From an uncultured Eggerthellaceae bacterium (GTDB lineage Bacteria; Actinomycetota; Coriobacteriia; Coriobacteriales; Eggerthellaceae), in assembly GCA_947565915.1 (NCBI GenBank), contig CANOHY010000004.1, positions 9,254-73,253 of the forward strand: DNA of 64,000 nucleotides, read 5' to 3'. Below are positions 1,245 to 41,580 of the stretch, piece after piece. The notes beneath the pieces were generated by a model. That model saw nothing but the letters and a program-made list of their open reading frames with translations. It was not told the origin of the DNA and ran no database searches. How positions within the stretch are numbered: the first letter of the stretch is position 1; every line of letters starts with the position of its first letter. The position numbers and the translations under genes are program-made.

Positions 1245-1253
1245 GCGCGCCTC

Positions 1254-2240: not shown

Positions 2241-2267
2241 CCTTTCCTGCTGGCCGCTCGCGCAACT

Positions 2268-4544: not shown

Positions 4545-4553
4545 CGGCTTCTC

Positions 4554-5897: not shown

Positions 5898-5915
5898 GAG
5901 AATAACGCCTGCCGT

Positions 5916-6057
5916 CAGCCCTTTTCAGAACCACGGCTACCCTGCTCGCCAAAAACATTCACTGGATGTTTTTGGCAAGTGCGGTCGCCTGGCGTCGCGC
6001 CTATAAAGTAAAAATCGCTGTTCGCGATTTTTGAATTGTGCGCGCCGACGGTTCTTC
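5916..6057 (-). repeat. copy A of a 142-nt dispersed intergenic element (reverse complement of 45733-45874)
   Basis: Hand alignment to copy B gave 14 mismatches and no indels. It contains hairpins at 5945-5979 and 6010-6032. Confidence 0.85.
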
Positions 6058-6148
6058 AAAAGGCCGACAGCAGGCGGTTTTGCCCGTGCGCGTTGAGGCC
6101 AGAGTGCACGGGCAATCGCTTTTGGTTCATTTTTTTGTTACTTATTCG

Positions 6149-6177
6149 TTGACTATTATTTTTCATTAGCGTATATT
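6149..6177 (+). promoter_or_regulatory. sigma-70-like promoter (TTGACT - 17 nt - TATATT) for the small ORF at 6210
   Basis: The hexamers are near consensus with exact 17-nt spacing. They sit in an A/T-rich stretch 33 nt upstream of the ATG at 6210. Confidence 0.55.
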
Positions 6178-6209
6178 CTTTTGTACTCGCAATATCGAAC
6201 GCAGCTAAA

Positions 6210-6512
6210 ATGAAGCACAAGAACGCACAACAAGGTCTGGTGAACCTGTTCACCTCGGACTCGTACCGGCTGCTCTGCCTACTGCTCGAGCTGCAGGCAG
6301 ATACGCTGGAAGGGCCACGGGTGCGCGAAAGCCAGGAGGAGATTGCCGCATTGTTCCATGTGAGCAAGGGCAAGCTCAATCCGCTGATGCAAGGACTTGT
6401 TGAAAGCGGATGCATACAGAAATACCGAGCGCGGAGCGGTTACACCGTTACCCCGCTCGGTATTGATGTAGTGAATGCGATTGGGCGTCTGGGGAAGCTT
6501 TCGGCCAAATGA
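6210..6512 (+). CDS. small winged-helix (MarR/Lrp-like) DNA-binding protein, hypothetical
   Basis: 100 aa. The segment ESQEEIAALFHVSKGKLNPLMQGLVESGCIQKYR looks like an HTH plus wing. It has its own strong promoter but no obvious SD. Local G+C is lower than the surroundings. Confidence 0.45.
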   Translation: MKHKNAQQGLVNLFTSDSYRLLCLLLELQADTLEGPRVRESQEEIAALFHVSKGKLNPLMQGLVESGCIQKYRARSGYTVTPLGIDVVNAIGRLGKLSAK

Positions 6513-6926
6513 TCCACGTTCGAAACGGAGGCGGCATGGCATCACCGCAAAAGCGCATCTTCGCGGGCAAGGCGAACCTCCAACCCGAGCCCTTTTGTCC
6601 TTATATAACCAACGAAAGCGGCTATCTCAGTCAAAGGCAACATCTCAACAGGCAACAGCGCAAGGCATCGCGCCGAAGCAGCTTCAGCTTGTTCTCGAGC
6701 GGCGGAAGATCTCGCATCATCTAGCACTTCGCCGCAACCGGCCAAAGCCCCCTTTCTTGCCCTTCGGGCCCACCTGGGCCATTCTGCGCGAGGGCAGGTT
6801 TGGGGGCTTTGTCATGCATGCTTTCACGGAACCCACAGCGCACCCCTGCAACGACCTTACACCGCTTCTTTTGGCTCTGCGATTGATTTTGCCGCCTTTT
6901 CTTCACCTGACAGGCTTCTGATTTCC

Positions 6927-6932
6927 TATAAT
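6927..6932 (+). promoter_or_regulatory. candidate -10 box (TATAAT) upstream of the hydrogenase operon
   Basis: Perfect TATAAT 134 nt upstream of the small-subunit ATG. No well-spaced -35 was found (CTGACA at 14 nt). It is followed by TGTCAT TGTCAT TGCCAT hexamer repeats. Confidence 0.3.
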
Positions 6933-7065
6933 GACCCAGTTCTGTCATTGTCATTGCCATCGTCCTCGTGCGCAACACGGACCATGCGATTGCGATGGCA
7001 AGATCTAGGCTGCACATGCAGCAAGAATGGGATGCAAGACGCAATAGAAGGAGAGGTGAAAGCCT

Positions 7066-8385
7066 ATGAGCGAGGAAACCGCTAGCTTCGATTTCCCCCA
7101 GGCGCTCGAGGCACGCGGCGTTTCCCGCAGGAGCTTTCTGAAGTTCTGCGGAGCTCTCGCCGCAGCAGCAGGCTTGTCAGCAGCTGCCACACCACGGGTT
7201 GCCATGGCCGTGGAGCAAAGCGTGACAAGCGCACAGGTGAAGAAGCTGTTCCCCGTAATCTGGCTGGAAGGCGCATCGTGCACGGGTTGCACCGAGTCGT
7301 TTGCGCAAATCGAAACGCCGGATGTGGCCACAGTGGTTCTGGAGATGATCTCGCTGAACTACTCCGACGTCCTGAGCGCAGGCGCCGGCTGGTCGATCGA
7401 GGAAGCCAAGGATCGCACCATCGAAGAGGGCAATTACATCGTAGTGTACGAGGGTGCCATCACCCAGGGCTTCGAGGGCAACACGCTGCGCGTGGCCATG
7501 CACACCGGAGAAGCCATCCTCGAGCAGGCTGCTAGCAATGCGACCGCCATCGTGGCGTTGGGCTCCTGCGCCGTGAACGGCGGCTGGATGGCAGCTTATC
7601 CGAACCCGGCGAATGCCACGGGCGTGCAAGCGTTCCTTGCCTCGCGCGGCATTACCGACAAGCCCATCGTGAACATTCCGGGCTGCCCGGCAAACCCCGA
7701 GTGGCTCATGAGCGTGCTGGTGCAGGTGCTGCTGATGGGTGGCCTCTCTGCGCTCGACCTGAACGAGATGGCCAAGCCAGCTGGCATCTTCAACCAATAT
7801 ATCCACGACAACTGCGAGCGTCGCGGCCACTTCGAGAATGGCGAGTTCGTCTACGAGTTCGGCAGCAAGGAAGAAGAGCTCGGCTATTGCCTCTACGCCC
7901 TTGGCTGCAAGGGCCCGCAAACGAAGTCGAACTGCGGCATCGTACTGTGGAACAACCGCCGCAGCTGGTGCGTGCAGGCCGGCTCTCCTTGCCTGGGCTG
8001 CTGCGAGGCCAACCCCGCTGACCCTGGCGACAACTGGGTGGAAGTGAACACGCCTTTCTACGAGCGTCAGCGCGACCTGCACATTGGAAACTGGTTCTTC
8101 CAGCCCACGCTTATCGGCGCTGGCCTGACCGGCTTGGTAGCCCTTGCCCTGGTAATCCACGGCTTCGGCATGAAGAAGACTGGTCGCATGGACGGCGGCG
8201 CGCCTTTCGAGAAGGTACGCGCTTGGGATGCCAAGCACCCTGAAAAGGCCATCGGCCAGTATCAATATGCCGTGGGTGACGACCCCGTTAAGATGCAAGA
8301 CTTCGAGAAGAAGATCGCTGCAGATTACGTGGAAGAGGAAGTCACCGAAGAAGTGACCATCACCGACGAAGAAGAAGGGAGGTAA
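7066..8385 (+). CDS. [NiFe] hydrogenase small subunit, Tat-exported, with C-terminal TM anchor and acidic tail
   Basis: Twin-arginine signal SRRSFLKFCGALAAAAGLSAAATPRVAMA and FeS cysteine clusters (CTGC, GCPANPEW, CLGCC). It has the TM segment TLIGAGLTGLVALALVIHGF. The RBS is GAAGGAGAGG. Confidence 0.9.
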   Translation: MSEETASFDFPQALEARGVSRRSFLKFCGALAAAAGLSAAATPRVAMAVEQSVTSAQVKKLFPVIWLEGASCTGCTESFAQIETPDVATVVLEMISLNYSDVLSAGAGWSIEEAKDRTIEEGNYIVVYEGAITQGFEGNTLRVAMHTGEAILEQAASNATAIVALGSCAVNGGWMAAYPNPANATGVQAFLASRGITDKPIVNIPGCPANPEWLMSVLVQVLLMGGLSALDLNEMAKPAGIFNQYIHDNCERRGHFENGEFVYEFGSKEEELGYCLYALGCKGPQTKSNCGIVLWNNRRSWCVQAGSPCLGCCEANPADPGDNWVEVNTPFYERQRDLHIGNWFFQPTLIGAGLTGLVALALVIHGFGMKKTGRMDGGAPFEKVRAWDAKHPEKAIGQYQYAVGDDPVKMQDFEKKIAADYVEEEVTEEVTITDEEEGR

Positions 8386-28204: not shown

Positions 28205-29038
28205 CTAGATGCGGCGCATTTGCTCCAAAGTGACGTCATACCAATGCAGGTAGGTAGGCGGGCAGTAGCGCAAAGCGGCCGACTTGGTAAGGCTATAGCC
28301 ATAGCCACTTGCCAATCCTGCTACATGGTCGGTGATGGCTGAAGTCCAATTCGACCACGTGCGCGAACCCCACCCCCATGCGTTGCAGGGCAAGAAGCAC
28401 ACGCTGCCCATGCCGCTCTCCGTGTTCGAGATTGCTGGCGACCAGCGGGGGTCAACGCCGTTTTCCCAAGCCGCCTCGGCAAAGACCGAGCCATAGCCTG
28501 CAAGGTTCGATTGCCCCAGGTAGTCGTCTATGCGCTTGCTCCACTCGGCAACGAATGCCTCCTTGCCCACCGTCCAATCCACGGCAGGCAACCCATATTC
28601 GTCAGTCGATTCGCTGGCGGGCTGGTCTTGCGCATCCACGCCCTGCTTCTTCTTGTTGGCAGCCACGCGCGCGAGGGCTTGCGCCTTCTCTTCCTCGAGA
28701 CGCTGCGCTTCGATGGCCTCCAGCTCGTCAACCATCTGCAGACCCGCATCAAGCGAGCGATGATTGCTTGCGCCCAAAAGCGCCAGCTGCTCGTCGAAGC
28801 TGCCTTGCGCAGTTCCATCCTCAACCGTTGACGTGTCCTGCACCTCTTCGCCAGCAAGCGAAGTGGCCGAGTGAGTGGCCTCGTCGAAGCCGAAAGCGCT
28901 GATGCTTGCCACCTTATCGGACACCTCGGCAGAGGCCACGCCGAAACCGACGCCGCAGGCGACTAAGAGAATGAAAAAGCCGACGATGGTGAGCTTCACC
29001 ACTCCGTCGGCTCTACGTTTAAGCTGCTTCCGACTCAT
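28205..29038 (-). CDS. membrane-anchored secreted protein with lysozyme-like (glucosaminidase/GH73-like) C-terminal domain
   Basis: ATG at 29038 with GAAGGAG RBS and one TM (LTIVGFFILLVACGVGFGVA). The C-terminal AISNTESGMGS...NAWGWG resembles the LESGWG...NN.FGI motif. The family call is tentative. Confidence 0.45.
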   Translation of the reverse strand: MSRKQLKRRADGVVKLTIVGFFILLVACGVGFGVASAEVSDKVASISAFGFDEATHSATSLAGEEVQDTSTVEDGTAQGSFDEQLALLGASNHRSLDAGLQMVDELEAIEAQRLEEEKAQALARVAANKKKQGVDAQDQPASESTDEYGLPAVDWTVGKEAFVAEWSKRIDDYLGQSNLAGYGSVFAEAAWENGVDPRWSPAISNTESGMGSVCFLPCNAWGWGSRTWSNWTSAITDHVAGLASGYGYSLTKSAALRYCPPTYLHWYDVTLEQMRRI

Positions 29039-29222
29039 ATTTTGTTTTGCTCCTTCGGGCAGCAACCACTGCGCTGCCGTGAAGGGCTATTGTACTCCAC
29101 TGAATCCGCGCGGGGCAAACCAAACTGCCATGAACGGTCAATCCCCTGCTCAGAGCTTATGCTATCAACGACTCGCGCCAGTCGAAGCGTAGGAAGTCGC
29201 GGCCATCAACAAGCTTCGAGGC

Positions 29223-29939
29223 TCATTGCTCATCTGCCTCATCCTTGGCATGCCAGCGCTCCCAGAACCGAAGCTTAGCGAAGTAATCCCGGCGGTGCTG
29301 GCGCACGTAGGGCTGAAGCGCCTCGATCAGCTCGTCGGCATCCATGCCCTGGAGCCTGCTCGCGAGGAAGGCTATGCCGGGGATGGCGCGGTATCCATTC
29401 TCGTACTCCTCCAAGGTCATGAAGGGCTTGGCATCCACTGAACCCGAGTCATCCAGGCAGCCTATCACTACGAGTTCGCCCGAGCGCCTGACCCAGCGCA
29501 CGTCATCGATCGGGACCTCCATCATGGCCACCTCGGTTTCCATCCCGATGAGCCCATCCTCGAACCAGGTGATGCATTGCCCATCAGCATCGGGCTCGTC
29601 GAACCCGAGCCTCTCGGCGTACATCCGCATGGTGTTGCGCTGCTTTCTCTTTATGAACCAAAGCGGCGGCGAATTAGTAAGAAAAGCGACAATGAGGAAG
29701 AAGAGAATCAAGACGAAAACCCAAGTATTGCAAGCAACCAACCATGCTGGAAACTCAAGTAGCCAAGCAAGCAGAAATGCAAATAAGAGATAATACACAG
29801 AGACGATAATGAAAGCGAAGAACTTCTTCCACTTCGACATGAAGTCGCAGATGCGCGAGTACTCGAGGAACTGCTCCCTTGTGAATGAGTAGCTGCACTC
29901 GGCTTTCATGTCATCTGCCATTGGAATGGTTTGCTGCAT
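29223..29939 (-). CDS. hypothetical membrane protein, candidate immunity protein for the RHS toxin
   Basis: 238 aa. The first ATG overlaps the RHS ORF by 29 nt, with alternative ATGs at 29921 and 29909. It has 2-3 TM helices and a ~140-aa soluble C-terminal domain. The 5' half is A/T-rich. The immunity role is inferred from position only. Confidence 0.6.
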   Translation of the reverse strand: MQQTIPMADDMKAECSYSFTREQFLEYSRICDFMSKWKKFFAFIIVSVYYLLFAFLLAWLLEFPAWLVACNTWVFVLILFFLIVAFLTNSPPLWFIKRKQRNTMRMYAERLGFDEPDADGQCITWFEDGLIGMETEVAMMEVPIDDVRWVRRSGELVVIGCLDDSGSVDAKPFMTLEEYENGYRAIPGIAFLASRLQGMDADELIEALQPYVRQHRRDYFAKLRFWERWHAKDEADEQ

Positions 29940-32900
29940 ATTGATTGTCTTTCCATTGCTGCTTTTTTCCCGAGTCTTCTAAGTACTTATCTGCCATAAG
30001 AGCTCCAATGCCAAAAGCTACTCCAACCACTGCCATTGCAATCAGGCCAGCGGGGCCGCCAATCAGGGTACCGGCTAAAATGTAAGCACCCGATGCTGCC
30101 ATCAATCCTCCCGCAGTTGCGCCTACAAATACCCACGAATCTGCTAGGAACTCGACGCTTGCATCGCTCGCCGCTCGGTCCGGCGTCACGTTCGGGTTGT
30201 TGTAGGCTGCATAGGTGTCGACCGCCACGCTGCCTATGCCGGTAGCAACGCCAATAGCTCCGACGACCTTGCCAGCGCCACTCAGGATCTTGTTCATCGC
30301 GGCAAGGCTGCTTTCCCCGAAGCCCGTCCCAGACTTCACGACCACCCTGGCAGCCTGCCACCCGACCGCGTTCGCGCCCTTCGTGATCTCGATGGTGAAG
30401 CTCGCGCCCTTCTGCAGCGCATCGAGGGCGGTGGCGCATTGGGCTGCGGCCATGGGCTTGGGCGCCTCCTTGCCCATGTGGAGATACTGGCTGCAGTACT
30501 TCTCGGCAGCAGCCCGCGAGATCCAACCGTTGTTGTACATCGACCAGGCGAGATAGGAGCGGTCCGCTCCCTCTTGCATCTTGGAGAGCTGCTGCTCGTT
30601 GTACATGCGCTGCGCGGTCGTGGTCAGCTGGTGCGATTCGTTGTACTCCCTGCGCCTCTCGTAGGTCCGCTCCTTCGAGGATGGCGAGTACTTCGCCATG
30701 ATCGACTCTTGGCGCCTGCGCTCGGCCTCCGCCTTGTACTCGGCCTCGTAGCTCGTGAGCATCTTATGCCCAGATGGGTCGATTGCGTTCACCGGGTCGC
30801 CCTCGGAGTAGGCGTAGCGCAGCTGCGAGGCGGGGTTGGCTGCTTGTCCCAGATAGGTGTCCTGGCTTGCGAACGAGAGGGTGGCCGTCACGAGGAAGCG
30901 GGCCCGCAGGTAAACAAGCCCTGTGGCAGAGTCTGCCTCCTCGGCGTTCCAGCCGCGGCTCGGCAGCGTGCCCGTGGCGGCCTCGATCGTGCCGGTTACG
31001 CTGAACGCAGCGGTGCCCACGAGGCTGCCCGAGCCGTCGAAGGCAGCGGTCACCGAGCCGCGCCCGTCGAAGGCATATGAGGTCGCGCCCTCGGCAAGGG
31101 GAAGCGCAGAGAAGGAGCCGGAATCGGCTTGGGGAAGGCCACGGGTCTCGACCGAGGCAGCGGTGCTATTCGCAGACGGCTCGGCTACAGCCGACATCAA
31201 GGAGAGCTCAGGTTGGGCTTCCGTGGCAACGGGGTCGAGCAGGGCCGTCAGGTCGTCCCCGCCCGCATCGAACAGGTAGAGATGGTCGCTCGTCGCGCCA
31301 TCCTCTCCGACGGTCGCAAGGGGCTGGGCAACGTCGCTCAGGGACGTGCTCGCGTAGGCCCGCTCGTCCATGCCCACGATCACGCCGCCGCTTGCAAGCT
31401 CGCCTGCGATCGAGGATACCGGGGGCTCTCCTGCCCCCAGGCCGCCTGTGGCATCGTCCGACAGGTCGTCGGCATCGAGCTCGTCCCTGCCGCGCCCGCG
31501 CCCGCGCGCATGCCACTTGGAGGCCAGAAGCTGCAGGAGCGCCCCCGATGCAGCAGGATTCGCTATACCTAAGGACCCTGCGAACCCCGAGCAGAGCGCG
31601 AGGGCCAGCGGTGCCAGCCCATCGCCCAGGTTGGGAAGCGCATCGGCGACGCCCTCCGATGCCGACACCCCGCCTTGGGCGATGGCCTCCTCTCCCACGC
31701 TCGCCTGCCAGACGCGGTTGCCATCCCCGTCGTAGGCAACGCCGAGCGAGAGCGCGTCTCCCTGCATCACGGCCGTCAGGCGGTTCTCGAGCCCGTAGGA
31801 ATAGGTGGTAGTGCCATCGGGCGCTTCTAGCTCCGTCAGGTTCCCGGCATCGTCGTAGGCATAGGTGGTCTTCCCTTCATTGCTCGTGGAGCTCACGAGC
31901 CTACCATCGGCGTCATAGGCGAACGTGGCGTGGTAGGCGCCCGCTCCCGTGCGGGAAGCCTCGACGCGGTTGCCCGCCGCATCGTAGGCGAAGCTCTCCT
32001 TAAAGGCGCCATCAGGGCCTGTGCCCGCAACGCCGGCAAGCCTTCCGGCATCGTCGTAGGATAGCTCGCGGCTGCCCTCGCCGAGTCCTTCGGCCTGCCA
32101 CTGCTCGCGGGCTATGCGCCCCGCGCCATCGTAGGCATACGCGTAGCTCGACACGGGATCACCGTGCGCATCGAGGTTCTCGACAGCAGATATGCGCCCG
32201 AGGCCATCCCTCTGCCATGAGGTGGAGGACCCGTCGGGGCGAGCGACGGATGCGGGGCGCCCCTCCGCATCGCAGGAGATGTTCCAGCTGCCCGCATCGG
32301 TTGAGATGGACGCAGGGTTGCCAGCGACGTCGTAGGAATAGCGGGCCACCTTGCCGTCCGGGTAGGCGACCGACGACACGCGCCCGTCGCCGTCGTATGA
32401 GTAGGCAAGTCGCCTGCCCGCTCCGTCGGTCTCGGACGCTATGCGCCCCGCTCCGTCGTATTCGCGCATGTAGGTTCCCGTCCAGTCGGAGCGCGAGGCA
32501 AGGTTGCCCTCGTCGTCGTAGGCGTAGCCCACCTCCGATCCAGGCGATGCGGGGTAGGACTTCGAGGTCAGGTTGCCCTCGCCGTCGTAGGCGAAGCGCG
32601 TCTCGGTGCCTGCGCCATCGACGTAGGAGGTCGGCCGCCCCGCGGCGTCCCGGGCGATCCTCTCGGTTGCGCCCGTCGGCGAGGTGACGCTCGTCAGGTT
32701 GCCGAGGGCGTCGTAGGCGTAGGAGGTGGTGGCGCCGAGCGCATCGGTGGCGCTCGCGACGTTGCCGAGAGCGTCACGCTCGTAGGTGGTGCTGCCCGCG
32801 CCGTCAGTGACCGAGGCGATGCGGCCTGCGGCATCGTATGAGTAGGTGGTGGGCTGGGATGTGCCCTCGGACCTCGAGGTCAGGTTGCCCGCCGCATCGT

Positions 32901-35900
32901 AGGCGTAGCGGGCGGACTGGGCGCCCTCGGGCGCTTGCCCGCTCTCCTGGAGGGACCGAAGCGCCGATGCGGCGCCATCGGCGCTCGCCGCCTTGACCGA
33001 GGCCATAAGGCGCCCTGCCTCGTCGTACCCGAACGCTGATGCCGTGCCGAAGGCGTCGGTTGCTGCCACCACGCGGCCGTCGGCATCGTAGCGCCAGGTA
33101 GAGACGCCCTTGCCGACCTTCTTGGAGGCGAGGTTTCCCGCCGCGTCGTATGAAAAGGCGGCCTCGACGGTCGCCCCGCTTGTTGCCGAGACGAGGTTTC
33201 CGCGCTTGTCGTAGGCGTAGCGCGCCGTCGCACCCGCGCCGTCGGTCATCGAGGTGGGACGGCCCATCCCGTCGTAGGCGATGCGGGTCGCATTCCCTGC
33301 GCCGTCGCGATAGGCGATGACGTTGCCCACCGCGTCGTAGGCCCACTTGCGCTCGCTGCCGTTGGAGTCGGTAGCCGAGGTCAGGCGCCCGAGCGCATCG
33401 TAGGCGAAGGCGTTCTCGAGCCCCAGGTTGTCGGCTATGCCCACGATGTTGTCCATGACGTCATAGGATAGGGCAAGCTCACGGCCTAGAGGAGTGGTCG
33501 TGCCCACAAGCCGGTCGGCGACGTCGTAGGCATAGGTCTGCGTGGCCCCGACGGCATCGGTGACCCGGATGAGGTTTCCAACTTGGTCATGCTCGAGGGT
33601 AGTGGTGGCACCTATCGGGTCGGTCATGGACGTGACGTTGCCCGCCGCATCGTAGGCGTAGGCGGTGGCGTGGGAAAGCGGGTCCTTGGCGGCGGTTACG
33701 TTTCCGGCTCCATCGTAGGCATAGGAGCTCTCCGCGCCGCTCGGGTCCCTCCAGGCGATGAGGTTGCCCACGCCGTCGTAGTCGAAGCTCAAGGCTCGGC
33801 CGCTCGGGAGCGCGAAGCGCACGAGGTTGCCTGCCCCATCGTATGCGTATGCGGTCTCGTTGCCGAGAGGATCCGTCTCGGAGGTCAGGTTGCCCGCCTC
33901 GTCGTATCCGTAGGTGCGCCGGTATCCCTCCCCGTCGGTCATGGCGACGATGCGCCCCGCATCGTCGTAGGCATAGGCGCTCATGGCCCCCGCCTTGTCG
34001 ATGGCGGCAACCACGCGCCCGCAGCCATCGTATTGGTAGGCGGTGCGGTTGCCTGCCGCATCCTGCTCCAGGACGAGGTTTCCGCACTTGTCGTGCTTGC
34101 GCGTGCTCGCGTTGCCGAGGGCATCGGTGGTGGATACGAGCAGCCCGCATGCGTCGTATGCGTAGGTGGTGACGGCTCCCGCCGCATCGGTCGCCCGGAC
34201 GACCTCGCCCCATTCGTCGTACTCGCTTGTCACGGTGCGCCCGAGCATGTCCGTCTTGGAGATCTGGCGTCCCGCCCCGTCGTATCCGAAGTCCCAATGG
34301 CGCGCATCACCGTCTGACGCCGAGGTCATGTTGCCGCGCACGTCGTAGGCGAACGAGAGCGTGACTCCCATGACGTCGGTCAAGGAGGTCAGGTTGCCAA
34401 GAGCGTCGTAAGCGAGGCTCGCGGCGTTTCCGCGTGCGTCCACGGTGCGCGCCACGTTGCCCGCTGCGTCGTATCCCTGCTCGGTGCGGTTGCCGAGCGC
34501 ATCGATCGCGGCAACGGCGCGCCCGAGGGCATCGTATTCGAAGGCGGTCGTAAACCCGCGCGCATCGGTTGTTTTGACGAGGTTGCCGACCGCGTCGTAC
34601 TCGAAGGCGGTGACGTTGCCCGCGCCATCGGTCACGGAGAGCAGCTCGCCTATGGAGCCGTAGGCGTAGCGCACCTCGACGCCCGCGCCGTCAACCTGCG
34701 CGATCACGTTTCCCCGAACGTCGTATTCGGTCGAGATGGTCGCGCCTTCTGGGTCGGTCGTCGACACCTGGCGCCCTGCGCCGTCGTAGGCATAGGTGGT
34801 GACGTTGCCTTCGGGGTCGGTCGCGGAGGCGAGGTTGCCCGCTGCGTCGTAGGCGAACGCCCACTCCTCCCCTGCCGGGTCGACCATAGACGTCATCTGC
34901 CCGGCCTCGTCGTAGGCGAGCTCCCAGATCCTCCCCTCCACGTCGACCTTGGCGAGCCTGCCGGCAGCGGTGTAGGCGTAAGATGTAGTCGCACCCGCCC
35001 CATCCGCCTCGCTTATCAATCTGCCGCCAGAAGCGTAGGCTCGCTCGGCAATCGTGCCGAGGGCATCTTCGCTCTTGGTCAGGCGGCCCATGGTGTCATA
35101 GGTGCTCTCCGTGCGGTTGCCGAGCGCGTCGATGGTGGCGAGCGCTACCCCGTAGGTTCCGTCGCGCTCGTAGGTGGTGATGGCACCATCCGGCCCCTCC
35201 TCGGAGGTGAGATAGCCGCGGGCATCGTAGGCATAGGAGGTCGCGTTCCCGGCAAGATCGGCATGCGCGGTGCACCTGCCCTTGCAGTCGTAGGACCAGG
35301 ATTCCACGTTGCCCAAGGCGTCCGTGTGCGCGACCTGGTTGCCTGCCGCATCGTAGGCATAGGATTCGGTGGCGCCGCTCGGAAGGGTAACCGAGGTGGC
35401 CTGTCCCTTGGCGTCGCGGATGAACGCCGTGCGTTGGCCGTTCGCATCGACGAGGGACGCGAGGTATCCCATGGGAGTGAGCTCGTAGGTGGTATGAGCA
35501 CCTGTGCCGTCCGTCTCGCCGACGATGTTGCCCGCAGCGTCGTACATGGTGCGCGAGATATTGCCCGCAGGGTCGGTGACCGACACGCGTCGGCCCATGG
35601 CATCGTAGGCATAGGCCGTCGTGCGCCCCAATGCATCGGTCTCGCTCGTCACCCACGGGCCGGAATACGCGTAGGCGATGGACACCCCGTCGGCATCGGT
35701 GGCGCGGAGGAGGCGGTGCGCCGAGTCGTACTCGAAGGAGAAGGCCTCTCCGCTCGACGACGTTTGCGAGACGAGGTCTCCCGCAGCGCTGTAGGCGTAG
35801 GAGATCTCCTCGCCATCGGGGTTCACCTGGCCAACGAGGCGGTTCTTCCCATCATAGGAATAGCTCGTCGCCCAGCCATCGGGCGAGGTGGAGCAGGTCA

Positions 35901-38900
35901 GGTTGCCGCGCCCGTCGTGGGCATAGATGCCCTCCTCGTCGTAGGCGAGGTTTCCGGATGCGTCGTATCCCCGCGAGACGGAGGTGCCGTCCGGATAGCC
36001 TATCCCCACCGTGCGCATGAGCGAGTCGTAGCGGTAGGTGGTCACCTGTCCCATGGCGTCGGTCGCGATGGTGGCGCCGCCCACGTAGGAGAAGCGCACC
36101 ACGCCTCCGAGAGCATCGGTCTGGCTTATGACGCGCCCTTGGTTGTCGTAGGCGTTGCGCACGGCCATGTTGCCATCTGGGTCCCTGAAGGAGGTCATGC
36201 GATGCGCCCCGTCGTAGCCATAGCGGGAGGTGGCGCCATTGGGCTCGGTGGCAGATACCAGGTTGCCGGAGGCATCGTAGCCGTACGTGCAGGCGGCCCC
36301 TCCGGGAAGCGCGAGCTTGGTGATATGCCCTGCAGCGTCCCACTCGAGCCCGAAGCGGATGCCCGAGGGGGAGACGACCGCGGAGACGAGCCCCTCGGCA
36401 TTCCTTTGGATGGTGGTAGCGAGCCCCAGCGCGCTCGTGCGGCTGGTCATGAGCCCCCAGGCGTCGAAGGAGTCGTAGGAGCCGTCCTGCCGCGAGAGCG
36501 TCCAGCGGACGTAGTCGACCTTGTTCTGCGTGTAGCGCGTGCCGGTCAAGGTCAGGGCGGGCTCCTCGGGGCATCTGAACGTGAGACCGCTCGCGCGGCT
36601 GAAGAAGTACACCTTGCCATCCCCCGCAGAGTACGCGATGGTGTTGGCGTCGGTCATGGAAAGCGATGCATCCCACGCAAACGACCAGCCGCGCCCGAAG
36701 GCCCCGGCCACATCTGCCGCCTTGGAGTTGTAGGTGCGGGCGAGCTTAAAGTCGCCTTCCACCTCGGGCACGCTCGCATCCACGCGCTCCATCACGAAGT
36801 TGCCGGTGCTCAGGTTCACCGGCTCGTATCCGTACTCGCAGTGCTTGGCCCTGCCCATGAGCGCCGAGTCGATCCGCCTCTTCTGGTCCACCGAGAGGTT
36901 TGAGGGGTTGTAGGCAGCGGTGGTCTTGGGGTTGCGGACGAAGAGCGTGTTGCCCTTGATGGAAAGCGAGTCGTGCACGTGGTTGTCCGCGCAGATGGTG
37001 GAAAGGGAGACCCCGTAGTGCTTGGCGATGTAGGGCAGGGTGTCGGTTGCCTTGGCCTGATAGATCAAGAACTTGTCGCTTGCCACCTCCTTGCCGACGG
37101 TGGCGTTCAGCACCGGCTGGGCGCGAAGGGAGTAGAGCGCATCTGCCGAGAGATTGGCGAAGAGCGGCGTTTGCCAGTTTCCGAGCTTGTCCTTGTACTT
37201 GGTGGCGTTCGGGTAGGCGGCCTCCCAAGCGGAGGAGTCGGGGTACTTGTAGCTCTTGGAGGCTATCGAGGCCCCCGCATCCCCGCGGCCATCGAGCTGC
37301 CAGCCCACGGCAGCGCCGGGTGTCGCCACCCCGTCTGCGAACACGCCATCGACCGCTTGGGTGCCCGCGACGGTCGTCTCGGTGACGGGCCGCAGGGCCA
37401 CGGTGGTGGAGTTCAAGGGATAGGAGGGGCTCACCGGGTCGGGAGTCGACCACTTGACCTCGAGCTTGGGCGGGTTGGCCGAGGTGTTGCCGGAGAACAC
37501 CTCGCATTGCATGTTGCGCTCGTCCTCGGACTTGAGCACGATGCCGTTGGGGGCGGCCAAGCCCTGCGCCCAGGCGTTCACCGCCTCGCGCACGTCCCAC
37601 TTCACGTAGCCCTCGGAGGTGCGCGCCTTCTTGAATGACAGGAAGGTGTGCTTGGCGTTCTTCTGGGTGTTCCACTTGAGCGTGTAGTAGTCCCACGCCT
37701 CGTCCATCCGGTAGGCGCCCATGTTGTTCTTGCCAGCCGAAAGGGTGGTGAACTGGTAGAGCGAGAAGGTGGCCGAGTCGATGCGCTCCTCGTTCATGTT
37801 GGCCGCAAAATCGTAGTCGAACTTCGCGTAGACGCGGCAGAACTCGTGCCCGCGCCCTCCCGGGTTGAAGGCGCCAGAGGCGGTTGCCACCCCGTCGTCA
37901 TAGCCCACCGGCAGAAAGCCCGAGTCGCCGATGACGCGGTCCCACGCCGACTCGACCACGGTGATGGTGGTCTTGGAGGCGCCGATGGAAACAGAGGGGT
38001 CTATGCGCACGGGGTAGGCCCGCTCGGGGGCACTTGCCCACTCCCAGTCGATGTCGAGCGCGATGACGGGCGCGCCTTCCTCCTCGTCGAGCGCGAGCCT
38101 CACCCCATCGCTCACCGCCCCGGCTGCATCCTCCATGTCAGGCGCGGCTATCGTCGCGACGAGCTCTCCGGCCGCATCGCGCACCACGACCGAGCCCTCC
38201 TCCAGCGCGCAGGCAAGGCGCGCGGGCAAATCGATGCGCGTTCGGAAGGTGCGCGGGGCCACCTCGCGCTTGAGGATCACGTCCTCCTTCACGAGCGAGC
38301 CCACGAGCGTGTACTGGTAGTCGATGCCCTCGGCAACCTCGGTGTAGCGGATGGAGGTGCCCTCCGCGGCCGACACCGTGAAGTCGCCGTCCAAGGGAAC
38401 CAGTCCGATGCTGCACTCATCGGCCCGAAGGACAAGCCCGCGCCCCTCGTCCATCTTGGCGGGAAGCTCCGCCGAAAACGAGTTCGCGGCGTTCACGTAG
38501 GTTGGGTTGCCTGCTTCCTTGCCTGGCACAGCCACAAGGGTGTTGTCGATGGGGGCGAGCGCGCCGTCCTCGGTGGCGTAGACGAGGTCGCGCCCGCCTA
38601 TCACCGTGGTGAAGTGGCGCGCATCCTCCTGGAAGACCACCGCCTCGCCGTCGGTTGCCACGGGAGTGCCGGGCACCTCGTCGAGCTCGAATCCGTAGAA
38701 GTCCTCTGGAGGCGCCGCCTTGGGGTCTGCCGGCTCGGGTGCCTTGGCCTCTTCTGGCTTCTCGGCGCCTTCCGTTGCCACCCCGTCAGCCAGCGAGGAG
38801 GCGAGCTCGGCCTGCTCCTCGATCCTCTCTGCGAGCTGCTCCTGCACCTCGGCCGCATGGGCGAACGATACCTTGCCGCCCAGGCTGAAGGCCAAGACGA

Positions 38901-39681
38901 ACGCGAGGACGCACGCGCATCCCTTCGAGAGCGCGCCTGCGAGCTTTCCCTTCGCTCGCGCGACCACGGGAAGCGCAAGCAGGCTGCGCCGAGGGCCGAG
39001 CGTCGCTTCCTGGCGCACGATGGCCGATATGCAGCAGAGCCACGCAACGCCGCCGATTAGGTTCAATGCGAAATGTAGAGCCCCTCGCATGCCATAAGGC
39101 GCAAGGCCTATGGCGGCGCCCAGCAGATGCGAGGCGCCCGCGAAGGCCGCCGTGAGCAGCAGGAGCGCGAGCAAGAGGTGCTTGGATGCTGCGAGCGCAT
39201 CTGTCGCCTTCGGGCGCCCAAGCCCGAGGACCGGGGCCAGGAAGAGCGCGAGCATCACTGGCACTGCGAGCACGGCGAGCACCTGTGCGAAGATGGCGAT
39301 GGCGATGGCCACCCCGTCGCGGCCGACCAGGCTGCCGAGCAGCGCCTGGAAGAGGAGCGCGAAGAGCACGCTGGCAACGCCCAGAGCGAGGGCGAAGGCC
39401 GCGAGCAGCCCGAATGCGCGCAGCAGCGCAGATGCCGCTTGCCGTGGTTCGCGACAGGCTAGCTCGCGCCCTAGATCGCGCGCGAGCTCGCGTCGCAGAG
39501 CGAGCCCGCATGCCACGATGGCCAGCGCGAGCAGCACGAAGAGCCCATAGACGATGGGCGCGGGAACGCTTCTGAGCCGGTTGGAGAGGGCGGCATCTGC
39601 CAGAGCATAGGTGAGCGACGCGCATAGCGAGAGCGCGCACGAAAGGAGCAGAGCTCTTTGTTGAAAGAAATTCCCCCTCAT
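29911..39681 (-). CDS. giant RHS/YD-repeat polymorphic toxin (WapA-like): N-terminal polytopic membrane region, LysM-like segment, YD-repeat shell, RHS-core end, 284-aa C-terminal domain of unknown family
   Basis: 3256 aa from ATG 39681 (AGGAGGTG 7 nt upstream), whereas the track ORF starts 25 codons earlier. It carries dozens of YxYDxxGN/R repeats and VNLSTGNF at the repeat start. The core end reads ...GLVYLRARF...SQDTYLG...GDPVNAIDPSGH. Confidence 0.9.
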   Translation of the reverse strand: MRGNFFQQRALLLSCALSLCASLTYALADAALSNRLRSVPAPIVYGLFVLLALAIVACGLALRRELARDLGRELACREPRQAASALLRAFGLLAAFALALGVASVLFALLFQALLGSLVGRDGVAIAIAIFAQVLAVLAVPVMLALFLAPVLGLGRPKATDALAASKHLLLALLLLTAAFAGASHLLGAAIGLAPYGMRGALHFALNLIGGVAWLCCISAIVRQEATLGPRRSLLALPVVARAKGKLAGALSKGCACVLAFVLAFSLGGKVSFAHAAEVQEQLAERIEEQAELASSLADGVATEGAEKPEEAKAPEPADPKAAPPEDFYGFELDEVPGTPVATDGEAVVFQEDARHFTTVIGGRDLVYATEDGALAPIDNTLVAVPGKEAGNPTYVNAANSFSAELPAKMDEGRGLVLRADECSIGLVPLDGDFTVSAAEGTSIRYTEVAEGIDYQYTLVGSLVKEDVILKREVAPRTFRTRIDLPARLACALEEGSVVVRDAAGELVATIAAPDMEDAAGAVSDGVRLALDEEEGAPVIALDIDWEWASAPERAYPVRIDPSVSIGASKTTITVVESAWDRVIGDSGFLPVGYDDGVATASGAFNPGGRGHEFCRVYAKFDYDFAANMNEERIDSATFSLYQFTTLSAGKNNMGAYRMDEAWDYYTLKWNTQKNAKHTFLSFKKARTSEGYVKWDVREAVNAWAQGLAAPNGIVLKSEDERNMQCEVFSGNTSANPPKLEVKWSTPDPVSPSYPLNSTTVALRPVTETTVAGTQAVDGVFADGVATPGAAVGWQLDGRGDAGASIASKSYKYPDSSAWEAAYPNATKYKDKLGNWQTPLFANLSADALYSLRAQPVLNATVGKEVASDKFLIYQAKATDTLPYIAKHYGVSLSTICADNHVHDSLSIKGNTLFVRNPKTTAAYNPSNLSVDQKRRIDSALMGRAKHCEYGYEPVNLSTGNFVMERVDASVPEVEGDFKLARTYNSKAADVAGAFGRGWSFAWDASLSMTDANTIAYSAGDGKVYFFSRASGLTFRCPEEPALTLTGTRYTQNKVDYVRWTLSRQDGSYDSFDAWGLMTSRTSALGLATTIQRNAEGLVSAVVSPSGIRFGLEWDAAGHITKLALPGGAACTYGYDASGNLVSATEPNGATSRYGYDGAHRMTSFRDPDGNMAVRNAYDNQGRVISQTDALGGVVRFSYVGGATIATDAMGQVTTYRYDSLMRTVGIGYPDGTSVSRGYDASGNLAYDEEGIYAHDGRGNLTCSTSPDGWATSYSYDGKNRLVGQVNPDGEEISYAYSAAGDLVSQTSSSGEAFSFEYDSAHRLLRATDADGVSIAYAYSGPWVTSETDALGRTTAYAYDAMGRRVSVTDPAGNISRTMYDAAGNIVGETDGTGAHTTYELTPMGYLASLVDANGQRTAFIRDAKGQATSVTLPSGATESYAYDAAGNQVAHTDALGNVESWSYDCKGRCTAHADLAGNATSYAYDARGYLTSEEGPDGAITTYERDGTYGVALATIDALGNRTESTYDTMGRLTKSEDALGTIAERAYASGGRLISEADGAGATTSYAYTAAGRLAKVDVEGRIWELAYDEAGQMTSMVDPAGEEWAFAYDAAGNLASATDPEGNVTTYAYDGAGRQVSTTDPEGATISTEYDVRGNVIAQVDGAGVEVRYAYGSIGELLSVTDGAGNVTAFEYDAVGNLVKTTDARGFTTAFEYDALGRAVAAIDALGNRTEQGYDAAGNVARTVDARGNAASLAYDALGNLTSLTDVMGVTLSFAYDVRGNMTSASDGDARHWDFGYDGAGRQISKTDMLGRTVTSEYDEWGEVVRATDAAGAVTTYAYDACGLLVSTTDALGNASTRKHDKCGNLVLEQDAAGNRTAYQYDGCGRVVAAIDKAGAMSAYAYDDAGRIVAMTDGEGYRRTYGYDEAGNLTSETDPLGNETAYAYDGAGNLVRFALPSGRALSFDYDGVGNLIAWRDPSGAESSYAYDGAGNVTAAKDPLSHATAYAYDAAGNVTSMTDPIGATTTLEHDQVGNLIRVTDAVGATQTYAYDVADRLVGTTTPLGRELALSYDVMDNIVGIADNLGLENAFAYDALGRLTSATDSNGSERKWAYDAVGNVIAYRDGAGNATRIAYDGMGRPTSMTDGAGATARYAYDKRGNLVSATSGATVEAAFSYDAAGNLASKKVGKGVSTWRYDADGRVVAATDAFGTASAFGYDEAGRLMASVKAASADGAASALRSLQESGQAPEGAQSARYAYDAAGNLTSRSEGTSQPTTYSYDAAGRIASVTDGAGSTTYERDALGNVASATDALGATTSYAYDALGNLTSVTSPTGATERIARDAAGRPTSYVDGAGTETRFAYDGEGNLTSKSYPASPGSEVGYAYDDEGNLASRSDWTGTYMREYDGAGRIASETDGAGRRLAYSYDGDGRVSSVAYPDGKVARYSYDVAGNPASISTDAGSWNISCDAEGRPASVARPDGSSTSWQRDGLGRISAVENLDAHGDPVSSYAYAYDGAGRIAREQWQAEGLGEGSRELSYDDAGRLAGVAGTGPDGAFKESFAYDAAGNRVEASRTGAGAYHATFAYDADGRLVSSTSNEGKTTYAYDDAGNLTELEAPDGTTTYSYGLENRLTAVMQGDALSLGVAYDGDGNRVWQASVGEEAIAQGGVSASEGVADALPNLGDGLAPLALALCSGFAGSLGIANPAASGALLQLLASKWHARGRGRGRDELDADDLSDDATGGLGAGEPPVSSIAGELASGGVIVGMDERAYASTSLSDVAQPLATVGEDGATSDHLYLFDAGGDDLTALLDPVATEAQPELSLMSAVAEPSANSTAASVETRGLPQADSGSFSALPLAEGATSYAFDGRGSVTAAFDGSGSLVGTAAFSVTGTIEAATGTLPSRGWNAEEADSATGLVYLRARFLVTATLSFASQDTYLGQAANPASQLRYAYSEGDPVNAIDPSGHKMLTSYEAEYKAEAERRRQESIMAKYSPSSKERTYERRREYNESHQLTTTAQRMYNEQQLSKMQEGADRSYLAWSMYNNGWISRAAAEKYCSQYLHMGKEAPKPMAAAQCATALDALQKGASFTIEITKGANAVGWQAARVVVKSGTGFGESSLAAMNKILSGAGKVVGAIGVATGIGSVAVDTYAAYNNPNVTPDRAASDASVEFLADSWVFVGATAGGLMAASGAYILAGTLIGGPAGLIAMAVVGVAFGIGALMADKYLEDSGKKQQWKDNQYAANHSNGR

Positions 39682-39798
39682 GGCATCCACCTCCTGGCGG
39701 ATGCCATGAATCTTACCATTTTCAAGCCCCAAAATCAAGCTCTGACCGGGGAACACTTGTTAGTGTCAGAAAGCGCTGATGATATATAGCCAATTCGA

Positions 39799-39863: not shown

Positions 39864-40685
39864 CTAGATGAAGAACACGCCCAACGATGGGGCGCCGAAC
39901 ACCCCCAAAGCCGTATCGAGCAAGCCAATGGGCCCAGGGATGATGCAACAAGCGGCGCTGACCGCGCAAAAGGCTATGAAGCCGAATGCGCCGAACATGG
40001 TGACCGCCGACGAGCAACTCCAAACCCCAACCACGAACAAGATTGCCGCAGCCAAGAGCAGCGGCCAGAACAGCTGAATGGCATAAGGAATCGTTCTGGG
40101 CGACACCAACCCCGTACAAATGGGCAGTACGGCGATGGACGAAGCTGCAAGCATGATGCCCGCCGCACGCCAAGCCGAGCAATGGCGCGAGCGCACCGGC
40201 ACAACGATGAAGAAAAGCCCTGTTATGAATGGCAGCACTGGCCAGAAGTTCCACCAAGGAACTCCTGGCACCAGCAATCCCAGCAAAAGGGCTGTGGCAA
40301 GCGCAAGCGCCCCAAGCGCCACCACAATGACCACGCGCGACAACAGCGACAAACCACGAAGCGGAAGCCGTACGAGCTCCTTTTGACCCTCGTCGTCGGT
40401 TACCAAGTACAAATCGGCTTCATGGTGGCTCGCGCGCTTGGCGTCCTGCACCATCACGTCGTAGGGGCCCGACTTGTCGGGCTCGAGCGGCACATGCGCC
40501 CACAGCACCAGATAGGCAATGGAAGCCAGGCCAGCCGTTACCACCATAAGGAGCACGGCCATGATGCGGATGACCAACGGGTCGACCTCGCAGTAATTGG
40601 CGATGCCCGCACATACGCCGCCCACATACGCATCGCGCGAGCGATACAAGCGGCGCTTCGACCTTTGTCGCACGGCAACAGCCAT
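39864..40685 (-). CDS. PspC-domain membrane protein
   Basis: It has RLYRSRDAYVGGVCAGIANYCEVDPLVIRIMAVLLMV (PspC domain) plus ~6 further TM helices. The ATG at 40685 has a GAGGGG RBS and lies 4 nt after the upstream stop. The track start at 40739 overlaps the upstream gene. Confidence 0.7.
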   Translation of the reverse strand: MAVAVRQRSKRRLYRSRDAYVGGVCAGIANYCEVDPLVIRIMAVLLMVVTAGLASIAYLVLWAHVPLEPDKSGPYDVMVQDAKRASHHEADLYLVTDDEGQKELVRLPLRGLSLLSRVVIVVALGALALATALLLGLLVPGVPWWNFWPVLPFITGLFFIVVPVRSRHCSAWRAAGIMLAASSIAVLPICTGLVSPRTIPYAIQLFWPLLLAAAILFVVGVWSCSSAVTMFGAFGFIAFCAVSAACCIIPGPIGLLDTALGVFGAPSLGVFFI

Positions 40686-40689
40686 CAGG

Positions 40690-41580
40690 CTAACCCCTCG
40701 CATCCAGGCTCTCGGACTGCGCAACCCCCTCGCCGTCATCGGTGGCGGGCAATGCCTCGGCGCGCTTGACCAGCAGCGACTTTATGCGGCGGCGGCGCAT
40801 GGAAAGCACCTTGAACGTGAATCCGCCCACTGCGAACTCATCTCCCACCTTCGGCACGCGGCCCGTTGTGTCGATAAGCCACCCGGCGATGGTCTCGTAT
40901 TGGTCGGATTCCGTCACCGGCCACTGAAGCTCTTGGGCGTCTTCCACGGGAAATCGACCGTCCACCAACCACTCTCCAGCGCCAACCTCTTGCAAGTCGG
41001 GAGCATCGAGGTCGGTCTCGTCGGTGATCTCGCCCACTATCTCTTCCACAATGTCTTCTATGGTGATGAGCCCATCAGTGCCACCATACTCGTCGATCAC
41101 GATGGCCATCTGCTTGCAAGCCGTTTGCATCTCGGACAAAAGAGGCAGCACGTCCTTCGTCTCGGGCACGAAGAGCACATCGCTCATGAATTCGCTTGCC
41201 AGCGCATCATCGTTGCCGTCGAGCACAGCAGGAACCATGTCCTTGTAGTGCACGATGCCAACGATATGGTCCAGATCTTCGTGGTAGATGGGCAAGCGCG
41301 AATAACCTGTGCCCTGCATGCGCTCGAGCGCCTCGCGCGCCGTTTGCGAATCCTCCACGGCAATGATGTCCACTCGTGGTTGCATGACCTCGGCTGCCGT
41401 AAGATCATCCAGGGAGAGAATCTCCCCGATCATGCGCTTCTCTTCCTCTTGCAGCTCGTCGGCGTCGTCTACGAGCTCTTTGAACTCCTCTTGCGAAACC
41501 GGCTTCTTGCCACGCGAGAACGCCGACTTCAAGCCATTGAGAATGCCCGATTGCGGGCCATCTTCACTTCCCATGTCCAC
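40690..41580 (-). CDS. CBS-pair plus CorC/HlyC transporter-associated domain protein
   Basis: It has a tandem CBS region (VMQPRVDIIAVED...RLPIYHEDLDHIVGIVHYKD) and a C-terminal CorC_HlyC segment (WLVDGRFPVEDAQEL...FTFKVLSM). Start is GTG 41580 or ATG 41574. Confidence 0.85.
   Translation of the reverse strand: MDMGSEDGPQSGILNGLKSAFSRGKKPVSQEEFKELVDDADELQEEEKRMIGEILSLDDLTAAEVMQPRVDIIAVEDSQTAREALERMQGTGYSRLPIYHEDLDHIVGIVHYKDMVPAVLDGNDDALASEFMSDVLFVPETKDVLPLLSEMQTACKQMAIVIDEYGGTDGLITIEDIVEEIVGEITDETDLDAPDLQEVGAGEWLVDGRFPVEDAQELQWPVTESDQYETIAGWLIDTTGRVPKVGDEFAVGGFTFKVLSMRRRRIKSLLVKRAEALPATDDGEGVAQSESLDARG

Follow-up and report, generated by a model that had tools for sequence, protein, structure and literature searches.

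We analyzed the C-terminal end of an RHS/YD-repeat polymorphic toxin gene, together with the gene that follows it, in a stretch of 64,000 nucleotides (nt) of contig CANOHY010000004.1 from an uncultured Eggerthellaceae bacterium (the window, to which all positions below refer unless another locus is named). The RHS gene lies on the minus strand at 29911..39756, reads open for 3281 codons from a GTG, and has its stop codon at 29911-29913 (-). Its conserved core ends in a DPSGH motif (30766..30780, minus strand), which is the junction between the conserved and the variable part of the protein. An original prediction had counted 284 residues after DPSGH and proposed that they carry a pore-forming or depolarizing cargo that it did not recognize as a described family; the count proved exact (nt 29914-30765). 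Directly downstream lies an open reading frame (ORF) of 238 amino acids (aa) at 29223..29939 (minus strand; alternative starts at Met7 and Met11), which is the putative cognate immunity gene. Between its start and the RHS stop there is an overlap of 29 nt, which suggests translational coupling of the toxin and immunity genes, and a public protein (P0032) is 100% identical to its product.

The RHS protein gave 38 RHS_repeat matches in Pfam (E=2e-281) along with DUF6531, CBM96, and a weak LysM match, and a sequence search matched the protein to Rhs shells in the PDB at E=7e-44. Zero Pfam matches fell in its last 529 residues. We compared the protein with related RHS proteins around the junction. 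The core tails of the RHS protein at locus L010 and of P0004 (locus L001) are 84-94% identical to the window over the last 100-120 residues, and for the L010 sister the identity is 87% across the final 1200 core residues and 94% across the final 100. Past DP[ST]GH the likeness to L010, P0004 (L001), and P0005 is patchy, and the C-terminal ~140 residues of L010 are unrelated. At least four cargo types follow the same motif in this one RHS lineage, which is the defining trait of polymorphic-toxin behavior, and toxin-immunity arrays are present in L001, L005, and L010. As a separate observation, the ~245 residues before DPSGH (30766-31500) include, after the last YD repeats, a hydrophobic stretch of low complexity that is rich in Arg and Gly ('…LAPLALALCSGFAGSLGIANP…HARGRGRGRDELDADDL…') and is kept in L010.

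Anatomy and relatives of the C-terminal tail

The tail, all of whose features are on the minus strand, probably consists of three parts, a linker, a pre-toxin module, and a C-module, and alignment with its relatives suggests that residues ~140-284 are the toxin proper. The original view of the tail as a single C-terminal domain had to be given up, since it opens, up to residue ~125, with a linker and a pre-toxin module that sister proteins combine with other cargo. The linker (tail residues 1-62; 30580..30765) is charged (23/62, or 37%, D/E/K/R) and predicted to be helical (pLDDT [predicted local distance difference test] of 71-89), and its mean pairwise identity among five relatives is 0.29. 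The tail therefore begins with charged helices as predicted, but these span only residues 1-62 and not ~100, since residues 63-125 form a separate conserved module. This second part (30391..30579; 'YLAWSMYNNGWI..AAEKYC..HMGKEAPKPM..QC') has the motif YLAWSMYNNGWI-x5-AEKYC-x4-HMGKEAPKPM ("NNGWI…AEKYC…HMGKEAP"), and we refer to it as the NNGW module. Among the five close relatives it is the part with the best conservation (pairwise identity 0.52), and in P0005 and L010 it precedes different, non-hydrophobic C-termini. Because it stands in front of differing cargo, the NNGW module is probably a pre-toxin, linker, or entry element rather than the toxin. The cargos behind it in these two relatives are themselves unannotated and without a Pfam match: residues ~3090-3247 of P0005 end in '…GGQDHIHFSSKPGSNKSTHAMNKDGTVRHG…', and another cargo type, at 3650-4440 of L010, ends in '…FYDFRWEYFGGKYGW'.

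The C-module opens with variable helices (residues 126-162; 30280..30390), which are predicted as helical with low pLDDT and have a pairwise identity of 0.21. These are followed by the first of two hydrophobic blocks (residues 163-188; 30202..30279; GAGKVVGAIGVATGIGSVAVDTYAAY), a moderately hydrophobic helix whose first part, GAGKVVGAIGVATGIGSVAV, covers residues 163-182; its best 19-residue Kyte-Doolittle mean, 1.57, is under the typical transmembrane cut-off. Conservation figures for the C-module come from 24-25 aligned sequences with ~15-22% identity to the window. K166 of block 1 is 91% conserved and Y185 is also conserved, and the block aligns with 'GK..K..GYAxLAxDVGxxIYNN' in relatives from Firmicutes-like sequences low in guanine plus cytosine (low-GC). 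A polar loop and the start of a helix come next (residues 189-206; 30148..30201; NNPNVTPDRAASDASVEF; close-family pairwise identity 0.53). The loop has the consensus "NPNxxPDRxxxDxxxE", in which R197, D201, and E/D205 are spaced i, i+4, i+8; position 197, an Arg in the window, is charged in all 24 sequences, and conservation is 96% at both D201 and E/D205.

Residues 207-258 (29992..30147) form the glycine-zipper helical hairpin, with arm 1 at ~211-236, a turn of G236-G237-P238, and arm 2 at 239-258. The original prediction placed a second hydrophobic block at nt 29992-30135, and this is where we found it (W211-A258), with block 1 before it and a polar tail behind. The longest run in the tail without D/E/K/R/N/Q/H is 49 residues; when we shuffled the tail 20,000 times, the longest such run averaged 13.7 residues with a maximum of 41, and 0/20,000 shuffles reached 49. 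Summed over 19 residues on the Hessa scale, residues 239-257 of arm 2 score -0.24, which is insertion-competent, and residues 212-230 of arm 1 score +2.8, which is marginal; in the RHS repeat region (~2000 residues), 1/1972 19-residue windows was as hydrophobic as the hairpin. Arm 2 carries the zipper G240 x3 M244 x3 G248 x3 G252, and arm 1 has G232xxxG236. Across the aligned sequences, columns 240, 244, 248, and 252 are 92-96% Gly, and positions 213-258 are essentially charge-free in all members. The predicted glycine zipper was thus recovered as a conserved hairpin with a transmembrane-competent arm 2, but it is imperfect in the window copy, which has Met244. The polar tail that ends the protein (residues 259-284; 29914..29991) has the motif E-D/E-S-G-x-K-Q-Q-W-K-D-x-x-Y, in which K272 is 96% conserved, the W271 column is 92% hydrophobic, and Y276 is conserved.

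A word-indexed search of 5.8 billion proteins returned two homologues of the tail, P0001 and P0002, and an exhaustive search of 1.84 billion cluster representatives with a hidden Markov model (HMM) returned 19 proteins at E<=1e-3, five of which were at E<=1e-10, which makes the C-module rare. The closest relative came from an 'uncultured Eggerthellaceae bacterium' metagenome-assembled genome (MAG), the only MAG found in a scan of a genome collection. Most relatives are orphan fragments; the window tail is fused to a full-length RHS protein. The weaker HMM matches cover the C-module alone, and most of these follow directly on the end of an RHS core ('…YDPxxGRF…NLYxYCxNNPxxxxDxxG…') in sequences that are low-GC and Firmicutes-like; P0012 is a complete 1844-aa YD protein with a C-module. 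A profile search with the low-GC relatives added 12 unannotated proteins, and a metagenome scan with the alignment of these members yielded eight loci; the metagenome scan with the close-family alignment found nothing, and tblastn of the C-module against plasmid and phage collections gave no match. We excluded two weak matches, P0007 and P0008, as generic glycine-zipper repeat proteins. At the RHS/YD C-termini of low-GC, Firmicutes-like bacteria the C-module sits behind unrelated linkers, and as far as the alignments go it is the shared unit of the family. It was seen on RHS/YD scaffolds or as orphan ORFs only; the idea that the same tail would also ride on LXG or CdiA scaffolds did not hold up at the sensitivity of these searches, with no LXG, CdiA, or other non-RHS scaffold among the relatives (the 19 exhaustive-search matches plus the relatives scanned).

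As expected from the original prediction, which had recognized neither an enzyme motif nor a described family, the tail matched 0 Pfam families at E<=1, gave only noise against NCBIfam, and had 0 matches to PDB sequences at E<=10. Colicin-type pore-forming domains and other solved pore formers were likewise unmatched by sequence in Pfam and the PDB. No relative reached a gathering score in Pfam; distant relatives gave sub-threshold matches to Gly-zipper_Omp, DUF6861, and DUF1269 (E 1e-3 to 6e-2). We considered membership in Gly-zipper_Omp (PF13488) and rejected it, with the window tail unmatched and its relatives at 13.8-19.4 bits against a gathering threshold of 25. A profile search of PDB sequences returned an OmpA-family Gly-zipper (E=1.5e-3) and the ClyA/HlyE hydrophobic tongue (E=8e-3), weak and composition-like matches that are all to glycine-zipper or membrane-inserting segments and to that extent weakly agree with a membrane role. 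AlphaFold2 (AF2) models had a mean pLDDT of 43.9 with a 3-sequence alignment and 60.4 with a 25-sequence alignment. The latter model (predicted template modeling score 0.34) is all-helical, with residues 1-94 at pLDDT 71-90, the C-module at 34-64, and a helix-turn-helix at 195-265. Foldseek against the PDB, using a model of low C-module confidence, found nothing better than E=2.7. We regard the fold evidence from these models as neutral, speaking neither for nor against a membrane role.

The putative downstream immunity gene and its relatives

The product of the 238-aa ORF is predicted to have a two-helix transmembrane (TM) hairpin at residues 37-88 (29676..29831, minus strand; Hessa sums -3.36 and -2.65). 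The two helices are joined by a short loop, 'EFPAW', and have the K/R-rich flanks KWKK and KRKQRNTMR, from which, by the positive-inside rule, both termini are predicted to be cytoplasmic; we propose an N-in/C-in topology with the loop outside. Behind the hairpin is a conserved soluble domain of ~150 residues (residues 89-238; 29226..29675, minus strand) with the motifs VRWVRRSGDLVVIGC and AFLASKLEGMDxDELI, which is probably cytoplasmic. In front of it, an alignment of 10 paralogues gave the N-terminal motif C-x-F-x-F-T-x-E-Q-F-x-E-Y-x-x-I-x-D-[FY]-M-S-K. The family had no match in Pfam, NCBIfam, or the PDB.

Gene linkage agreed with the original suggestion that the downstream membrane ORF provides immunity: it encodes two strong hydrophobic helices, and homologous gene pairs are adjacent in every related locus. 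Immunity homologues directly follow every close tail homologue (L001, L005), and in 11/11 distant C-module loci the next gene encodes a membrane protein of 2 to 6 predicted TM helices, from unrelated families, so that a membrane-protein gene is next to the C-module in 16/16 loci (11 distant plus 5 close). Locus L008 provided a contrast: upstream of the module it has an RHS C-terminal fragment, and the protein encoded after this fragment has no TM-like segment. A single immunity superfamily for all variants was rejected on hhalign probabilities of 18% (the 296-aa downstream protein of L010) and 0.5% (the 161-aa downstream protein of L009). Locus L005, from an uncultured Eggerthellaceae MAG, holds at 965-8056 at least eight paralogous ~225-245-aa, 2-TM immunity-type genes on both strands plus two orphan tail genes, and adjoins a tyrosine recombinase gene (10124 onwards); by its gene content, the array is an immunity island. 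At 3631-4407, L001 has the window's own immunity gene in a frameshifted copy, downstream of a different RHS tail, and L010 has an intact orphan copy with 75% identity at 6439-7155. These two copies are evidence, at the sequence level, of tail/immunity cassette displacement in the RHS lineage.

Variation is concentrated in the predicted membrane parts of both proteins. In the toxin, pairwise identity is 0.21-0.31 in the variable helices and hydrophobic blocks versus 0.52-0.53 in the NNGW module and the polar loop; in the immunity protein the TM hairpin is the least conserved part (0.18 versus ~0.40 for the remainder). We saw the same division in GC3, the GC content of third positions in codons. 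The RHS core has a GC3 of 0.84±0.07 (minimum 0.63), and the value is 0.8-0.97 in tail residues 1-150, and host-like (0.8-0.9) in the NNGW module, and drops to 0.37-0.47 in tail residues ~200-284 (the hairpin and polar tail). In the immunity gene, it is 0.83-0.90 in residues 11-40, 0.40-0.47 in residues 41-80 (the TM hairpin), and 0.7-0.9 in the C-terminal domain. The two low-GC3 patches are discrete (29676-29831 and 29914-30165), with host-like GC3 between them, and the two-patch pattern recurs in pair b of L005 (1879-3406) and pair a of L001 (482-2024). Generic TM codon bias was rejected as the cause, as GC3 remains at 0.6-0.93 in the control membrane proteins of the window (the N-terminal domain of the RHS protein, CydA/B, and CmpB). 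From these patterns, we infer that both hairpins may be exchanged or fast-evolving specificity elements.

Candidate mechanism and alternatives

The other end of the RHS protein bears on how such a cargo might be displayed. By comparison with the homologue P0005, whose N-terminus and overall architecture are the same, Met26, at nt 39681, is probably where translation really starts. The N-terminal ~250 aa contain at least six hydrophobic helices (Hessa scale), and CBM96 and the weak LysM match come after this polytopic N-terminus. At 38770-39681 (RHS residues ~26-330), a polytopic membrane domain thus occupies the N-terminus in place of a Sec signal, PAAR, or LXG. No type VI or type VII secretion system (T6SS or T7SS) genes were found near the RHS locus. 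The protein is probably a polymorphic toxin that a monoderm gut actinobacterium anchors at its surface, and a monoderm actinobacterial RHS protein with a polytopic N-terminal anchor is an uncharacterized setting.

The anatomy, conservation pattern, gene linkage, and lack of an enzyme signature were directly observed, and from these we infer insertion, pore formation, topology, and immunity contact. On balance, we favor, with moderate confidence, the reading that the tail is a membrane-inserting, oligomerizing, and depolarizing toxin carried by a surface-anchored monoderm RHS protein and neutralized in the membrane by the downstream 2-TM protein. The toxin would be released at or near a neighboring cell and would enter the cytoplasmic membrane of this neighbor via the marginally hydrophobic glycine-zipper hairpin. 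The zipper faces would then drive oligomerization into an ion-conducting pore that dissipates the membrane potential, with the conserved charges beside the hairpin (R197, D201, E205, K272, D273) at the mouth of the pore or at the membrane interface. Protection of the producer would come from the protein that the overlapping downstream gene encodes, whose variable two-helix hairpin would bind the toxin hairpin in the membrane, as in Tsi5, TsaI, and the CdiI ionophore immunity proteins.

Several known systems resemble this arrangement in part. Tse5 (RhsP1) of Pseudomonas aeruginosa is also Rhs-borne; Tse5-CT depolarizes cells through proteolipidic, cation-preferring pores, and its immunity protein Tsi5 is an inner-membrane protein with two predicted TM helices (PMC9637101, PMC10684867). 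The putative window toxin is likewise the C-terminal cargo of an Rhs shell with hydrophobic/amphipathic helices and no enzymatic signature, and the immunity proteins of both systems have two predicted TM helices. The two toxins differ in that they have no detectable sequence similarity: the Tse5 entries 8cp6 and 9i9y were matched through the RHS repeats only and never through the tail, and neither the tail nor the C-module profile had a Tse5 match at E<=10, though Tse5 entries were in the library. Tse5 is delivered by PAAR/T6SS in a diderm, whereas the window protein has a polytopic anchor with CBM96 and a weak LysM match and no T6SS/T7SS context; moreover, its immunity protein has an extra soluble domain of ~150 aa that Tsi5 lacks.

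The LXG toxins of T7SSb offer a second comparison. TelE and EsxX are Gram-positive glycine-zipper depolarizing toxins, and TspA has a shorter zipper and membrane-bound immunity (PMC10434224, PMC12744356); EsxX and TspA are both depolarizing and have membrane-bound immunity proteins and orphan immunity islands (PMC12744356). The window tail shares with them a C-terminal GxxxGxxxG-type zipper, which in those toxins is essential for depolarization or permeabilization, and the systems are also alike in having monoderm targets reached from outside, membrane-bound immunity (ExiCD, TsaI), and orphan immunity islands (PMC10434224, PMC12744356). The motif of the functional class TelE/EsxX/TspA/Tse4, (G/A/S)xxxGxxxG in a hydrophobic helix, is present in the window tail. 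In contrast to these toxins, the scaffold here is RHS, with the LXG domain unmatched in the window protein and in any relative scanned, and there is no counterpart of the soluble DUF5085 proteins that neutralize TelE and EsxX in the cytoplasm.

Contact-dependent growth inhibition ionophores have a two-domain tail, a 2-TM hairpin immunity protein, and variation at the contact helices (PMC11630599). In the EC93 family of CdiA-CT, a variable N-terminal entry domain is joined to a helical domain at the C-terminus that spans the membrane and has a putative glycine zipper, and the CdiI proteins are 2-TM hairpins with both termini cytoplasmic and variation at the helices predicted to be in contact (PMC11630599); unlike the window immunity protein, with which they have no detected homology, they are 72-100 aa without a soluble domain. 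WapA, known from Bacillus subtilis and Streptococcus suis, resembles the window protein as a surface-associated RHS/YD protein of monoderms whose tail is polymorphic and whose immunity gene lies next to it, but its characterized tails are tRNases or other enzymes and it is exported by an N-terminal Sec signal (PMC12704120), where the window protein has a membrane-type cargo and a multi-helix N-terminus. Finally, PF13488 (Gly-zipper_Omp), PF13441 (Gly-zipper_YMGG), DUF6861, and DUF1269 resemble arm 2 of the hairpin at the motif level, and are short motif models compared with the window module of ~145 aa. We conclude that the window toxin is most likely analogous to Tse5, TelE, and EsxX, not homologous to them.

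A number of observations weigh against a membrane-inserting toxin. The window has Met244 where at least 92% of 25 relatives have Gly, which counts against this reading given that single Gly-to-Val changes abolish the toxicity of TelE (PMC10434224). Arm 1 (+2.8) and block 1 (Kyte-Doolittle 1.57) are just marginally hydrophobic, and the low confidence of AF2 in the C-module leaves room for a hairpin buried in a soluble bundle. We detected no homology to validated pore formers. A mirror-tree comparison of toxin and immunity identities in five pairs (n=10) gave r=0.29 (p=0.41), which is not significant. Most importantly, P0004 is 39% identical to the window tail, keeps the polar loop, and is paired with the same immunity family, and it has no transmembrane-competent segment; it is the main point that a membrane toxin leaves unexplained.

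We therefore weighed other explanations. It is unlikely, in our estimation, that the hairpin is a membrane-targeting or translocation device only, with the activity in the polar part of the C-module (K166, R197, D201, E205, K272, D273), for example as an interfacial enzyme or a binder of lipids or lipid-linked precursors. There is precedent in the T6SS DNase Tde1, which needs its glycine zipper for translocation and not for toxicity (PMC10240207); the residues that vary least in the family are charged ones and not Gly (197 always, D201 and E/D205 at 96%), and P0004 retains the loop and a same-family immunity gene without the hairpin. However, the conserved polar part is just ~40 residues and has no catalytic-type motif, no match to an enzyme family or fold, and no conserved His, Ser, or Cys nucleophile, and membrane-embedded immunity in 16/16 loci suits a target in the membrane better.

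A 49-residue polar-free stretch that is conserved as such in the family is difficult to reconcile with an all-helical soluble toxin that keeps its hairpin permanently buried as a core, that has a target in the cytoplasm or the cell wall, and that is neutralized by the soluble domain of the immunity protein. AF2 does predict an all-helical protein, arm 1 and block 1 are below the transmembrane-insertion threshold, and the immunity protein does have a conserved ~150-aa soluble domain, yet immunity variability is concentrated in the TM hairpin and not in that domain, and the distant low-GC (Firmicutes-like) relatives have as partners membrane proteins that are purely polytopic and lack it. A monoderm RHS protein with no known import route would also need an additional translocation step, and we consider this explanation quite improbable. 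Least probable is that this copy's cargo is inactive or decaying, kept in a recombining RHS locus beside an orphan-type immunity gene directed against the toxins of neighbors: Met244, the hairpin turn (three residues shorter than in the closest relatives), and the orphan (L010, 75% identity) and frameshifted (L001) immunity homologues would fit, but the frame runs unbroken through all 3281 codons, a full-length RHS protein carries the tail where most relatives are orphan fragments, every other motif residue is conserved, and the gene overlap suggests translational coupling.

Within the favored reading of a membrane-inserting toxin, a more specific and rather doubtful possibility is that toxin and immunity protein recognize each other wholly in the membrane through exchangeable 'key and lock' hairpins on conserved scaffolds, that the two hypervariable low-GC3 patches (nt ~29914-30165 and ~29700-29820), which recur in three independent pairs, reflect coordinated cassette replacement or rapid co-diversification of these two hairpins alone, and that the two proteins form a new monoderm-RHS family pair. 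The scaffolds would be the NNGW pre-toxin module in the toxin and the N-terminal motif and cytoplasmic domain in the immunity protein, and the hairpin patches may be imports from low-GC Firmicutes, in which the C-module is found as well.

By their sequences, the toxin module and the immunity protein are undescribed families in the libraries and literature searched, while the mechanism class is already known and established, so that the concept is unchanged. The characterized cargo of RHS proteins and WapA is mostly enzymatic, above all in Gram-positives, and the main documented example of a membrane-depolarizing Rhs cargo is Tse5, from a T6SS context. To this the locus would add an unannotated toxin module and an immunity family from gut Coriobacteriia-type bacteria, and a compact toxin-immunity pair suited to the study of recognition in the membrane. 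The family motifs could also be converted to HMMs, which would leave fewer "hypothetical" labels in microbiome genomes.

Genes around the RHS locus

The window has a GC content of ~67%, and a domain scan identified the genes flanking the RHS locus as housekeeping genes (cytochrome bd, HypD/HypF, and a PspC-domain protein); further flanking ORFs read as TrkA-like and adenylosuccinate-lyase-like from their translations alone. The PspC-domain (membrane-stress) gene, at 39864-40739 (minus strand), is directly upstream of the RHS gene and on the same strand, which could be coincidence. On the other side, a terminator scan downstream of the immunity gene found none. Just past the immunity gene, at 28205-29065 (minus strand), is a 286-aa ORF with an N-terminal hydrophobic helix, a Trp/Gly-rich C-terminal domain, and no Pfam match, and a sigma-70-like promoter match is located at 29118-29089.

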